Shown here one piece after another: positions 1-16,845 of a DNA stretch of 16,845 nucleotides (position 1 is its first letter; every line of letters starts with the position of its first letter). Position numbers and translations under genes: made by a program. The notes under the pieces were generated by a model, which was given only the letters and a program-made list of their open reading frames with translations, was not told the origin of the DNA and made no database searches. Source of the DNA: Escherichia coli (GTDB lineage: Bacteria; Pseudomonadota; Gammaproteobacteria; Enterobacterales; Enterobacteriaceae); assembly GCF_003334315.1 (NCBI RefSeq), contig NZ_QOWR01000073.1. One strand, 5' to 3'.

Positions 1-357
1 GTCGGGGCTAAATCGCGCCAGCGCTGGCTGTTTTACGCGTATGACAGGCTCCGGAAGACGGTTGTTGCGCACGTATTCGGTGAACGCACTATGGCGACGC
101 TGGGGCGTCTTATGAGCCTGCTGTCACCCTTTGACGTGGTGATATGGATGACGGATGGCTGGCCGCTGTATGAATCCCGCCTGAAGGGAAAGCTGCACGT
201 AATCAGCAAGCGATATACGCAGCGAATTGAGCGGCATAACCTGAATCTGAGGCAGCACCTGGCACGGCTGGGACGGAAGTCGCTGTCGTTCTCAAAATCG
301 GTGGAGCTGCATGACAAAGTCATCGGGCATTATCTGAACATAAAACACTATCAATAA
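1..357 (+). CDS. insB: IS1 transposase InsB, C-terminal part (5'-truncated by window edge)
   Basis: Open frame from base 1 to TAA at 355-357; the ORF-track 88 aa segment (91..357) is the in-frame tail of InsB. Confidence 0.85.
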
Positions 358-372
358 GTTGGAGTCATTACC
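1..372 (+). mobile_element. Partial IS1 insertion sequence (3' portion, including the right terminal inverted repeat; 5' part lies outside the window)
   Basis: Frame-1 translation from base 1 reads the InsB C-terminal region (...[14 protein letters not shown]...[55 protein letters not shown]...HYQ*). The sequence ends with the characteristic IS1 terminus ...aaacactatcaataagttggagtcattacc at 343-372. Recognised from memory of IS1, not by search. Confidence 0.85.
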
Positions 373-386
373 CATCGCGTCTTATT

Positions 387-470
387 GCCGGATGCGGCGT
401 GAACACCTTATCCAGCACACATCTGGCAGCGGCTATAGGTCTGATAAGACGCGTTAGCGTCGCATCAGAC
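387..470. repeat. REP/BIME element: two REP units in opposite orientation
   Basis: gccggatgcggcgtgaacaccttatccagc (387-~416) and inverted unit taggtctgataagacgcgttagcgtcgcatcagac (435-470) are typical enterobacterial REP palindromes; located between the IS1 end and the yggR stop. Confidence 0.8.
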
Positions 471-520
471 ATTTATTGCCTTTGTAGGCCCAATAAGCTT
501 GCGCATCGGGCATGGCAACG

Positions 521-1501
521 TCACAAACGCCCTTCCCCCACCCGGTGCTGATAACTCTGCTGAAACGTTATCATCCCCACCTGCTGCCCGGTTTGAATAA
601 CATGCGGTAACTGGTGGGTTTTCCCTTCGCGAATCAAATTCCCCACCGCGGGTGTGTTAATCAGCAATTCAAATAGCGCCACGCGTCCTTCCTGTTTATC
701 CACTTCCAGCTTTTGTGACAACACGGCCCGTAAACTCCCTGCCAGTTGATTACGTACGGGATCTTTTTCCTGCGCCGGAAATGAATCCACCAGTCGCTCA
801 ACTGACTGCGCGGCACCACGCGTATGTAATGTTGCCAGCACCAAATGCCCGGTTTCTGCCGCCGTCAGTGCCAGACGGATTGTCTCGCTGTCACGCAGCT
901 CTCCGAGCAAAATCACATCAGGATCTTCCCGCAATGCGGCCCGCAATCCCGATGCGAACGTCATACAGTGCAAACCAATTTCCCGCTGCTGGATCAAACA
1001 TCGCTGGCTGGCATAGAGATATTCAACAGGATCTTCCAGCGTCAGAATATGCGCATCGGCATGTTGATTGAGATAGCCAACCATCGCCGCCAGCGTGGTA
1101 GATTTGCCGCTCCCCGTCGCCCCCGTCACCAGAATCAGGCCATTCTCGCTCTTGAGTAATTCCGGCAATACCGTTGGTGCGCCAAGCTGTTCGAGCTGCG
1201 GGCAGTGCGAAGGTAACAGCCGTAACGCCAGCGAAATGCCATGCCGTTGCGCGAATGCGCTGCCACGCAATCGCTGGTTTTCCGCCAGCGACACGGCAAA
1301 ATCCAGCTGGCCATTTTCCAGCAATATTGCCCGCTGATCGTCATCCAGCCACTCCCGCAGTAGCTCTTCGACGTCCGGCGCATCAAACGGCGCAGCTTCC
1401 ATTAGCCCGCGAATGCGCCATCGTGCGGGCCAGGCGCTGCACAGGTGTAGATCCGAGACGTTATGCTTTACACTAAGGGCCACAATTTCTTCCATATTCA
1501 T
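521..1501 (-). CDS. yggR: PilT-like type IV pilus retraction ATPase family protein YggR (326 aa)
   Basis: ORF 521..1576 (-); start trimmed to MNMEEIVALSVKHNVSDLH... (ATG at 1501) because a GAGGA Shine-Dalgarno lies 7 nt upstream and the longer version would overlap yggS. Walker A motif GATGSGKST present. Confidence 0.9.
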   Translation of the reverse strand: MNMEEIVALSVKHNVSDLHLCSAWPARWRIRGLMEAAPFDAPDVEELLREWLDDDQRAILLENGQLDFAVSLAENQRLRGSAFAQRHGISLALRLLPSHCPQLEQLGAPTVLPELLKSENGLILVTGATGSGKSTTLAAMVGYLNQHADAHILTLEDPVEYLYASQRCLIQQREIGLHCMTFASGLRAALREDPDVILLGELRDSETIRLALTAAETGHLVLATLHTRGAAQSVERLVDSFPAQEKDPVRNQLAGSLRAVLSQKLEVDKQEGRVALFELLINTPAVGNLIREGKTHQLPHVIQTGQQVGMITFQQSYQHRVGEGRL

Positions 1502-1518
1502 ACTAAGATCCTCGGAAA

Positions 1519-2223
1519 ATGAACGATATTGCGCATAACCTGGCACAGGTCCGGGACAAAATCTCAGCGGCTGCAACGCGTTGCGGCCGTTCTCCAGAAG
1601 AAATTACGCTGCTTGCAGTCAGTAAAACAAAACCTGCGAGCGCCATCGCAGAAGCCATTGATGCCGGGCAGCGTCAATTTGGTGAAAACTACGTTCAGGA
1701 AGGGGTAGATAAAATTCGCCACTTTCAGGAACTGGGCGTAACAGGATTAGAATGGCATTTTATTGGCCCGTTGCAGTCTAATAAAAGCCGCCTGGTGGCA
1801 GAGCATTTCGACTGGTGTCATACCATCGACCGTTTGCGCATCGCTACCCGTCTCAACGACCAGCGCCCGGCAGAACTTCCCCCTCTTAACGTTCTGATTC
1901 AAATTAACATTAGTGATGAAAACAGTAAGTCCGGGATTCAACTGGCTGAACTGGACGAGCTGGCAGCTGCGGTCGCTGAACTACCGCGTTTACGTCTGCG
2001 CGGGTTGATGGCAATCCCTGCGCCTGAGTCAGAATATGTAAGGCAGTTTGAAGTTGCACGCCAAATGGCTGTAGCATTTGCCGGACTGAAAACGCGCTAC
2101 CCGCATATCGACACGCTCTCTCTGGGAATGTCGGACGATATGGAAGCCGCCATTGCGGCAGGTAGCACGATGGTTCGTATCGGCACTGCAATTTTTGGTG
2201 CGCGTGATTACTCTAAAAAATAA
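1519..2223 (+). CDS. yggS: PLP homeostasis protein (YggS/PLPBP family, alanine racemase-fold PLP-binding)
   Basis: 234 aa ORF MNDIAHNLAQVRDKISAAA...; conserved lysine-containing N-terminal motif LLAVSKTKP; start only 17 bp from the divergent yggR start. Confidence 0.9.
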   Translation: MNDIAHNLAQVRDKISAAATRCGRSPEEITLLAVSKTKPASAIAEAIDAGQRQFGENYVQEGVDKIRHFQELGVTGLEWHFIGPLQSNKSRLVAEHFDWCHTIDRLRIATRLNDQRPAELPPLNVLIQINISDENSKSGIQLAELDELAAAVAELPRLRLRGLMAIPAPESEYVRQFEVARQMAVAFAGLKTRYPHIDTLSLGMSDDMEAAIAAGSTMVRIGTAIFGARDYSKK

Positions 2224-2807: not shown

Positions 2808-3094
2808 ATGCCGTAACAGTTAATGATGACGGTCTGGTTTTACGGCTCTATATTCAGCCGAAAGCCAGCCGTGATTCTATTGTCGGTTTACATGGCGACG
2901 AAGTTAAAGTCGCCATTACCGCGCCGCCGGTTGACGGCCAGGCCAACAGCCATCTGGTGAAGTTTCTCGGTAAGCAATTCCGGGTAGCCAAAAGCCAGGT
3001 GGTAATTGAAAAAGGCGAACTTGGCCGCCACAAACAAATTAAAATCATTAATCCGCAACAAATCCCGCCAGAAATCGCGGCGTTAATTAATTAG
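2804..3094 (+). CDS. yggU: DUF167 family protein YggU (96 aa)
   Basis: ORF 2792..3094; start assigned to ATG 2804 ([24 protein letters not shown]...), which overlaps the yggT stop as ATGA. Confidence 0.85.
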
Positions 3095-3695: not shown

Positions 3696-4824
3696 ATTAC
3701 CGCCGCTGAGTCTCTACATTCACATCCCGTGGTGCGTGCAGAAATGCCCGTACTGCGATTTCAACTCTCACGCGTTGAAAGGAGAAGTGCCGCACGACGA
3801 TTACGTTCAGCATCTGCTTTGCGATCTGGACAATGATGTGGCTTACGCTCAGGGCCGTGAAGTAAAGACAATCTTTATTGGCGGTGGTACGCCGAGCCTG
3901 CTTTCCGGCCCGGCGATGCAAACGCTGCTGGACGGCGTGCGTGCGCGTTTGCCGCTGGCAGCGGATGCAGAAATTACTATGGAAGCGAACCCTGGTACGG
4001 TAGAAGCCGATCGCTTTGTCGATTATCAGCGTGCTGGTGTGAACCGCATCTCTATTGGTGTGCAGAGTTTTAGCGAAGAAAAGCTGAAACGACTTGGGCG
4101 CATTCATGGCCCGCAAGAAGCGAAACGAGCGGCAAAGCTGGCGAGCGGTTTAGGGTTACGTAGCTTTAACCTTGATTTGATGCATGGACTACCGGATCAA
4201 TCACTGGAAGAGGCGCTTGGCGATCTACGCCAGGCCATTGAACTGAATCCGCCGCATCTTTCCTGGTATCAACTGACCATCGAACCCAATACGCTGTTTG
4301 GTTCGCGACCACCGGTGCTGCCGGACGACGACGCGCTGTGGGATATATTCGAACAGGGGCATCAGTTATTAACCGCAGCGGGTTATCAGCAATATGAAAC
4401 TTCCGCTTACGCCAAACCCAGTTATCAGTGCCAGCACAATCTCAACTACTGGCGCTTTGGCGACTACATCGGTATTGGCTGCGGCGCGCACGGCAAAGTG
4501 ACCTTCCCGGATGGGCGCATTCTGCGTACCACTAAAACGCGTCATCCGCGTGGTTTTATGCAAGGAAGGTATCTGGAAAGCCAGCGTGATGTCGAAGCCG
4601 CAGATAAGCCGTTTGAGTTCTTTATGAACCGCTTTCGCTTGCTGGAGGCCGCGCCACGCGCAGAGTTTAGTGCGTATACCGGGCTTTGCGAAGATGTGAT
4701 TCGCCCACAGTTAGACGAGGCGATTGCCCAGGGTTATCTCACCGAATGTGCGGATTACTGGCAGATAACGGAACATGGGAAGCTGTTTTTAAATTCGCTG
4801 CTGGAGCTTTTTCTGGCTGAGTAA
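3688..4824 (+). CDS. hemW: Radical SAM family heme chaperone HemW (coproporphyrinogen III oxidase-like)
   Basis: 378 aa ORF with a CxxxCxYC radical-SAM cluster motif (CVQKCPYC); start overlaps the rdgB 3' end by 8 nt. Confidence 0.9.
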
Positions 4825-4833
4825 ACTTGTATT

Positions 4834-4952
4834 GCCGGATGCGGCGTGAACGCCTTATCCAGCCGACATGTGGCAGCGGTTGTAGGTCTGATAAGACGCG
4901 CAAGCGTCGCATCAGACGTTGATTGCCGGATGCGGGGTCAACGCCGCATCCT
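4834..4952. repeat. REP/BIME cluster (three REP-like palindromic units)
   Basis: gccggatgcggcgtgaacgccttatccagc (4834-~4863), inverted unit taggtctgataagacgcgcaagcgtcgcatcagac (4881-~4916), third unit gccggatgcggggtcaacgccgcatcc (4925-~4951). Lies between the convergent hemW and yggM 3' ends. Confidence 0.8.
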
Positions 4953-4978
4953 GCTACAAATCGTGCACTATATCAAAC

Positions 4979-16786: not shown

Positions 16787-16845
16787 GCCCGGATAGCTCA
16801 GTCGGTAGAGCAGGGGATTGAAAATCCCCGTGTCCTTGGTTCGAT
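16787..16845 (+). tRNA. pheV: tRNA-Phe (anticodon GAA), 5' 59 nt; 3' end truncated by the window
   Basis: GCCCGGATAGCTCAGTCGGTAGAGCAGGGGATTGAAAATCCCCGTGTCCTTGGTTCGAT: acceptor/D-arm/anticodon loop (cuGAAaa) and start of the T-arm (GGTTCGAT). Assigned as pheV rather than pheU from the yqgA-adjacent context. Confidence 0.9.

Follow-up and report, generated by a model that had tools for sequence, protein, structure and literature searches.

The promoter of the Escherichia coli yggS operon is embedded in codons of the divergent gene yggR

The Escherichia coli genes yggR and yggS lie head to head, with only 17 bp between their start codons. We analyzed their junction in a 16,845-nucleotide stretch of E. 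coli DNA (contig NZ_QOWR01000073.1 of assembly GCF_003334315.1), here called the window and numbered from its first letter. A published transcription start site (TSS), taken together with invariant synonymous sites, shows that a sigma70-like promoter of the yggS-yggT-yggU-rdgB-hemW operon lies in yggR codons 7 to 19, with the TSS in codon 7. Keeping this promoter has frozen the choice of yggR codons 9 to 13 and 17 to 20 across the Enterobacteriaceae. Taken as a whole, the locus is likely to be a compact, conserved head-to-head pair in which the control signals of each gene are written into the coding sequence of its partner.

The operon start is given by SMRT-Cappable-seq (Yan et al. 2018, PMC6131387, Supplementary Data), which places a TSS supported by 242 reads at position 3095060 on the forward strand of NC_000913.3. 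The full-length transcript reported from this position, 3095060 to 3098536, covers b2951 to b2955, and in the table this operon is equated with the known one. Position 3095060 of K-12 is base 4061 of locus L002 and position 1481 (plus strand) of the window, 38 nt upstream of the yggS ATG and 20 nt into yggR. A −10 element, TACACT (1469 to 1474, plus strand), occupies −12 to −7 relative to this TSS and has the A at position 2 and the T at position 6 that are expected of a sigma70-type hexamer; it is the reverse complement of the yggR codons for Ser10 (AGT) and Val11 (GTA). Across a 17-bp spacer, the −35 element TGTAGA (1446 to 1451, plus strand) falls within yggR codons 17 to 19 (GAT CTA CAC). 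The −35 element agrees with the consensus at 3 of 6 positions, and the two hexamers together agree at 7 of 12. A consensus promoter scan of window positions 1100 to 2000 returned 0 sites, which means little, because the mapped yggS promoter itself falls below the 9-of-12 threshold of that scan. Two other conserved plus-strand candidates, TGCACA-N18-TATGCT and TTTACA-N17-TTCCAT, ranked at least as high as the true promoter by position weight matrix (PWM) and were excluded by the mapped TSS. The same dataset also lists a further plus-strand start within yggS (K-12 3095662, window 2083), which gives rise to a yggT-yggU-rdgB-hemW transcript labeled “novel.”

The codons that carry this promoter stand out in a comparison across species. 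Using YggS as the query, we collected 80 loci from different Enterobacteriaceae species, of which 77 were usable; all species counts below refer to these 77 unless another set is named. The yggR gene was divergent from yggS in every usable locus. The nucleotides of yggR codons 9 to 13 (CTT AGT GTA AAG CAT) and 17 to 20 (GAT CTA CAC CTG) are essentially invariant, and these blocks were noticed before the published TSS data were found. Both codons of the −10 element are fixed (AGT in 77/77 and GTA in 76/76 species), as are those of the −35 element (GAT in 77/77, CTA in 76/77, and CAC in 77/77). CTA is the rarest leucine codon in E. coli. The PWM score of the promoter is 5.1 in the window, and its minimum across the species is 4.9.

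Normalized synonymous-codon entropy was 0.24 over yggR codons 2 to 21 versus 0.72 over the rest of the gene (Mann-Whitney p = 1.6e-7), with cut points that were picked after inspection of the data. The near-invariant synonymous zone spans codons 7 to 21 (1439 to 1483), the nine near-invariant codons of yggR all fall within codons 1 to 30, and from codon 22 on, codon choice is free. The control genes yggT, yggU, rdgB, and ruvX showed only a mild effect over their first 15 codons (0.42 to 0.64), without such a block, and the method recovered the known overlaps between the end of yggT and the start of yggU and between the end of rdgB and the start of hemW. Within yggU, codons 16 to 45 (window 2849 to 2938) contain five near-invariant synonymous codons, exceeding the other controls, and may mark an embedded signal upstream of rdgB.

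The two genes that share this DNA were identified from the list of open reading frames (ORFs), profile hidden Markov models (HMMs), and RefSeq annotation. On the minus strand, yggR (521 to 1501) encodes a 326-aa PilT/PilU-family ATPase homolog. Its product scored 468.4 bits against TIGR01420 (cutoff, 319.1), with residues 2 to 325 aligned to model positions 1 to 328 of 343, and contains the Walker A motif GATGSGKST. By this full-length match above a curated cutoff and the Walker A motif, yggR belongs to the PilT/PilU family; a role in pilus retraction is putative. On the plus strand, yggS (1519 to 2223) encodes a 234-aa pyridoxal phosphate (PLP)-homeostasis protein, which scored 347.5 bits against TIGR00044 (YggS; cutoff, 106.25) over residues 1 to 229 and carries the SKTKP motif with the PLP-binding Lys36, invariant across the species. 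The genes yggT, yggU, rdgB, and hemW follow downstream. YggR diverges faster than its neighbors, with 66 to 82% identity to the E. coli protein outside Escherichia versus 80 to 89% for YggS, and in Citrobacter amalonaticus yggR is split over three frames, either as a pseudogene or through an assembly error.

Around positions 1490 to 1525 the window reads ...TTCCATATTCATACTAAGATCCTCGGAAAATGAACG..., in which CAT at 1499 to 1501 is, once reverse-complemented, the ATG of the 326-aa minus-strand ORF. The yggR ATG (1501, minus strand) and the yggS ATG (1519, plus strand) enclose a gap of 17 bp (1502 to 1518), as the original prediction stated and as the K-12 RefSeq annotation also has it. The layout in K-12 MG1655 is identical (yggR, 3094100 to 3095080, minus strand; yggS, 3095098 to 3095802, plus strand), a second strain that is identical to the window over the query segment 1200 to 1860 carries the same annotation, and the yggR-yggS segment was found in 5426/5426 complete E. 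coli genomes. The distance is kept at 14 to 19 bp in 77/77 species (17 bp in 46 and 16 bp in 19). By comparison, the remaining divergent conventional gene pairs in the 50 kb of K-12 around the locus, the region to which this comparison was limited, are separated by 55, 152, 160, and 277 bp; the literature counts 602 divergent gene pairs.

Such spacing might arise as an annotation artifact if one of the two genes truly started at a downstream codon, and E. coli yggR does have an in-frame ATG two codons downstream (1495). However, this second codon encodes Met in only 53% of the species, lies 13 nt from the Shine-Dalgarno (SD) sequence, and would still leave a gap of only 23 bp, whereas Met1 is kept in 77/77 species (ATG in 75 and GTG in 2) with an SD sequence at 3 to 7 nt. 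Both family HMMs align from residue 1 or 2, and distant PilT N termini, MDI(T/A)ELLAFSVKHN, align in register with MNMEEIVALSVKHN, their first residues, MDI(T/A)ELL, standing opposite E. coli MNMEEIV. The yggS ATG is likewise kept in 77/77 species; a start further upstream is impossible because of an in-frame TAA at 1504 to 1506, 12 nt upstream of the ATG, and there is no other nearby start codon. We consider an artifact very improbable, and the annotated yggR start, which had been named as a weak point of the original prediction, stands.

As predicted, the gap itself holds the yggR SD sequence, GAGGA; it reads TCCTC on the plus strand (1509 to 1513) and lies 7 nt from the yggR ATG. Its use by the two genes is not symmetric, however, since yggS is essentially without an SD sequence: for yggR the duplex with the anti-SD sequence averages −6.1 kcal/mol at a spacing of 3 to 7 nt, whereas the best match of yggS averages −2.9 kcal/mol at a spacing of 1 to 2 nt, and 13 species have none. 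Because of this asymmetry, we take the gap to serve yggR translation and yggS to initiate without a functional SD sequence. The 5′ region of yggS is not more structured than shuffled sequences and, if anything, is less so (z = +1.32). The yggS leader (1481 to 1518, plus strand; 38 nt from the TSS and gene coordinates) is antisense to the yggR SD sequence, the yggR start codon, and the first seven yggR codons.

To place the arrangement in a wider frame, we used ten distant YggS representatives with 44 to 63% identity. Five of the ten loci contain a divergent PilT gene; two of these (L083 and L084) are identical, leaving four distinct loci, with gaps of 22, 25, 77, and 160 bp. The divergent pilT-yggS linkage is therefore old. 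On this sequence comparison, the tightness of 14 to 19 bp and the promoter inside pilT codons belong to the Enterobacteriaceae and their nearest relatives. AGT GTA is kept in the two distant loci with gaps of 22 and 25 bp and is replaced by TCG GTC and AGT GTT in the two with gaps of 77 and 160 bp, a small sample whose direction is as expected.

We then considered where yggR is transcribed from. Only 5 nt separate the yggR SD sequence from the yggS ATG, and any yggR promoter must therefore sit antisense within the yggS operon. The synonymous sites of yggS are also constrained at the 5′ end, with an entropy of 0.34 over codons 2 to 45 versus 0.65 over the rest (p = 1e-7) and with 12/14 near-invariant codons within codons 1 to 45. 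The constrained zone (1531 to 1641; codons 5 to 16, 22, 25 to 28, 32 to 33, 36, and 39 to 41) is a candidate yggR control region, a yggS initiation region, or both. It consists of one long block at 1531 to 1566 (GCG CAT AAC CTG GCA CAG GTC CGG GAC AAA ATC TCA) and smaller ones at 1582 to 1584, 1591 to 1602, 1612 to 1617, 1624 to 1626, and 1633 to 1641 (CCT GCG AGC). In codons 25 and 26, within the 1591-to-1602 block, the second and third bases are kept despite an amino acid change.

A natural rearrangement bears on the same region. In Citrobacter portucalensis (L025) and Citrobacter youngae (L041), two minus-strand genes are inserted between yggR and yggS, in an insertion that spans about 1.15 kb and 0.95 kb, respectively. 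It is flanked by a near-identical duplication of about 295 bp that comprises yggR codons 1 to about 42, the gap, and yggS codons 1 to about 50. Upstream of the intact yggR there thus remain about 150 bp from the 5′ end of yggS, and upstream of the intact yggS about 125 bp from the 5′ end of yggR. The inserted ORFs (1227 to 2005 in L025 and the equivalent in L041) point in the same direction as yggR and lie downstream of the truncated yggR′ copy. One of them, of 119 aa, gave a weak CHAP-domain match (E = 0.04) and no NCBIfam match; the other, of 139 aa, has a hydrophobic N terminus, and the two may form an effector/immunity-like pair.

The best sigma70-like candidate for a yggR promoter, TTGTTT-N18-TAATTT (1601 to 1630, minus strand), has a PWM score of 5.8 in the window, as good as that of the true yggS promoter; its mean across species is 2.7, with a score above 3 in only 56% of them, and we assign it low confidence. 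A sigma54 reading of CTGGCAC-N5-CGGGA (1538 to 1554) was rejected by inspection, as its −12 element lacks GC. RNA structure was likewise rejected as the source of constraint (z-scores of −0.62, +1.32, and −0.54), and Rfam gave no match near the yggR-yggS junction. Three repeats were noted in passing. A 22-bp near-palindrome, CGGCTGCAACGC/GCGTTGCGGCCG (1568 to 1589, yggS codons 17 to 24), is apparently specific to Escherichia, because synonymous sites there vary freely among species. The 8-mer GCACAGGT occurs as a direct repeat at 1439 to 1446 and 1543 to 1550, one copy in each invariant block, 104 bp apart and flanking both starts; with about one such repeat expected by chance in 341 nt (an estimate), it is probably coincidental. 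The 9-nt inverted repeat AATTTCTTC/GAAGAAATT is within chance expectation for the same 341 nt, again as an estimate, and was discarded.

Because PilT is grouped by function with the genes for type IV pili and competence, we also searched for the core of CRP-S sites. The palindrome TGCGA-N6-TCGCA, TGCGAGCGCCATCGCA, lies at 1635 to 1650, inside yggS and 134 to 149 bp upstream of the yggR ATG, as a putative CRP- or CRP-S-like core. It is the only exact match in the window (expected, 0.04; a match occurred in 7/200 shuffles) and the sole copy in 50 kb of K-12 (expected, 0.11). Its TGCGA half is kept in 71/77 species, through two synonymous positions, and its right half reads TCGCA in 40/77 and TCGAA in 37/77. 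The motif is absent from the distant relatives. An intrinsic terminator proposed by a pattern scan at the same place (minus strand, 1652 to 1623; hairpin plus T-run) was rejected, with a free energy of −8.9 kcal/mol, a z-score of −0.62 relative to shuffles, and an uncompensated mid-stem mismatch in 37/77 species. The palindrome, the yggS 5′ constraint, and the Citrobacter duplication are each compatible with a yggR promoter in yggS codons 1 to 45; none of them demonstrates one.

Several observations weigh against the view that yggR is controlled from within the 5′ part of yggS, and most of them favor a different explanation: that yggR has no dedicated adjacent promoter and is either cryptic or transcribed by read-through of antisense transcripts from further inside or beyond yggS, with the constraint on yggS codons 1 to 45 serving yggS itself (for example, through SD-less initiation, for which the 5′ region must be open, or through codon context at the PLP-binding lysine). 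The SMRT-Cappable-seq tables for M9 and rich medium contain no b2950 transcript and no minus-strand yggR TSS. The Mendoza-Vargas 2009 supplement had no match at the locus, nor did the accessible parts of the Ettwiller 2016 and Kim 2012 supplements, and a full-text literature search for yggR returned no paper on yggR transcription. A PWM scan of the minus strand across species found no convincing conserved sigma70 −10 element. RNase III double-stranded RNA (dsRNA) pairs captured with p19 in K-12 lie within yggS (U00096.2 positions 3093362, 3093433, 3093595, and 3093756, equivalent to yggS +243 to +637 and window 1762 to 2156). These pairs point to antisense transcription across the body of yggS, and their depth in the gene suggests that the antisense start may lie far upstream of the constrained zone; the accessible part of that dataset lists none where the 5′ overlap is predicted. 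Some of the constraint at the 5′ end of yggS may indeed serve yggS, which is SD-less and folds less well at its 5′ end than shuffled sequences: the neighboring control genes are also somewhat constrained in their first 15 codons, and the CCT codon of yggS Pro39 is kept even in distant species with a 160-bp gap.

On the other hand, yggR is intact in almost all 80 loci and has a good SD sequence, which argues that it is expressed somewhere. The constraint on yggS reaches codon 45, far past the needs of initiation, codons 25 and 26 keep their nucleotides through an amino acid change, and in the Citrobacter duplication the intact yggR retains about 150 bp of upstream sequence from yggS. We therefore regard the lack of a dedicated promoter as a rather unlikely alternative to a head-to-head pair with reciprocally embedded signals. 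Of the two promoters that the original prediction placed in partner coding sequences, that of yggS is there, with its TSS at 1481 and invariant −10 and −35 codons, whereas a yggR promoter in this region is putative in its position and even in its existence; in the same way, the check proposed at the time, TSS mapping on both strands, yields a plus-strand start at 1481 and no minus-strand yggR start in the published tables. If yggR is transcribed at all, the layout makes mutual interference unavoidable; this is a structural expectation and not an observation.

A second alternative ties the ATPase to the competence and type IV pilus regulon: the palindrome at 1635 to 1650 would serve a CRP-dependent promoter of yggR, possibly with assistance from Sxy (CRP-S). 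Its appeal lies in an exact and unique palindrome upstream of a PilT homolog, with the TGCGA half preserved through synonymous positions in nearly all species. The half-site has the C at position 6 that marks CRP-S sites, and E. coli CRP-S sites pair one conserved TGCGA half with one degenerate half in either orientation, which matches the family-wide combination of TGCGA with TCGCA or TCGAA. The accessible published CRP-S surveys do not mention pilT or yggR, and the site may have been overlooked. Yet E. coli itself lacks the asymmetry of a CRP-S site, which appears only as TCGAA in 37/77 species; a symmetric TGCGA/TCGCA site acts independently of Sxy as a CRP site (PMC6728893), and the TCGAA found in half of the species loses the key G5. 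Sequence inspection revealed no −10-like hexamer at the class I distances (−61.5, −71.5, −82.5, and −92.5) or the class II distance (−41.5). CCTG is also kept in distant wide-gap species that lack the palindrome, and the main text of the genomic SELEX (systematic evolution of ligands by exponential enrichment) paper names neither yggR nor yggS as a CRP target. On balance, we consider CRP control of yggR improbable, while retaining the palindrome as a lead.

If the head-to-head reading with embedded control signals is correct, yggR would be transcriptionally quiet in standard culture. When switched on, it would be transcribed from within the 5′ part of yggS or from beyond it, with codons 1 to 45 of yggS the most probable place, because synonymous sites are constrained there. 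In that case, polymerase transcribing yggR would cross the active promoter of yggS head-on and make an mRNA complementary to the yggS leader, which is the more abundant of the two RNAs. The expected outcome would be mutual damping, in which the housekeeping promoter dominates over yggR and strong induction of yggR damps the yggS operon. A more ambitious proposal, to which we give little credence, holds that the 14-to-19-bp architecture is a conserved either/or switch: the constitutive yggS promoter and the antisense leader would silence yggR, and a CRP-dependent promoter at the TGCGA palindrome, with or without Sxy, would turn yggR on under starvation or in competence, to the detriment of the yggS-yggT-yggU-rdgB-hemW operon. 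Were it true, the switch would supply a mechanistic reason for the pilT-yggS linkage, which has long been noted and never explained.

The pair is a divergent arrangement that overlaps face to face, with a leader antisense to the partner, a known and ordinary kind of compact bacterial architecture. As in other overlapping divergent promoters and excludons, the yggS TSS lies beyond the start codon of the partner gene and the leader is antisense to the partner's ribosome-binding site, and interference is expected both at the DNA level, by collision and occlusion, and at the RNA level, by pairing. Here, in contrast, only one TSS is mapped, that of yggS, and the overlap (38 nt plus the yggR leader) is short relative to classical excludons. 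The very short divergent distance and the use of shared DNA for two promoters also recall back-to-back bidirectional promoters such as fepA/fes, whose starts are 19 bp apart. In such back-to-back pairs the two transcripts stay clear of each other. The yggR-yggS pair is not of that type, however, because the yggS TSS (1481) lies beyond the yggR start codon (1501) and the transcripts must cross.

With respect to CRP, the palindrome resembles the CRP-S sites of the E. coli competence regulon in its TGCGA core with C at position 6, in its position upstream of a type IV pilus gene, and in its location inside a neighboring ORF; the comA-E CRP-S site of Haemophilus influenzae likewise overlaps an upstream ORF. 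It differs from the asymmetric E. coli CRP-S sites in being a perfect palindrome, and no TSS is mapped at a class I distance.

Divergent pilT-yggS linkage in Proteobacteria has been described for Acidovorax citrulli and other plant pathogens (PMC8787154) and has been reviewed (PMC9605639). These papers concern the same families head to head and cover synteny, not spacing or promoters. The gene order (from annotations), the yggS TSS (from a public dataset), and the pilT-yggS synteny (published) were thus already known; what seems not to have been stated before is that the promoter is written into yggR codons and has frozen them across a family. It offers a clean and quantifiable case of an embedded promoter dictating codon choice, in which the rare CTA and four neighboring codons are fixed in 77 species.

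The arrangement also matters for how mutants are read. Standard deletion designs, as used in systematic knockout collections, replace genes from codon 2 onward. Replacement of yggR in this way should remove the TSS, the −10 element, and the −35 element of the yggS-yggT-yggU-rdgB-hemW operon. Since the operon promoter lies inside yggR, phenotypes of yggR deletions, or of IS or ISEcp1 insertions in its 5′ part, may reflect loss of the operon. Deletions of yggS would conversely remove whatever drives yggR. The architecture further provides a testable reason for the quietness of the E. coli PilT homolog in the laboratory.

The sequence that flanks the pair showed several further features. Positions 1 to 470 of the window are a copy of IS1, with an InsB-like ORF at 91 to 357 (plus strand) and a megablast match to IS1 that extends to about 470. 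About 50 bp separate this copy from the stop codon of yggR; in K-12 and strain W5-6, ruvX occupies this place. The IS1-yggR junction was found in 0/5426 complete E. coli genomes (none covered at least 80% of window positions 1 to 700), and the DNA may stem from a strain that is Shigella-like or otherwise rich in IS1. Just downstream of hemW, Rfam reported a match to naRNA4 (CssrE, derived from a repetitive extragenic palindrome [REP]) at 4885 to 4955 (minus strand). The 3′ end of the yggS-operon transcript, K-12 position 3098536, falls at the edge of this match (about window 4957 if the sequences are colinear). A tRNA gene at 16787 to 16845 (plus strand) runs off the right end of the window.

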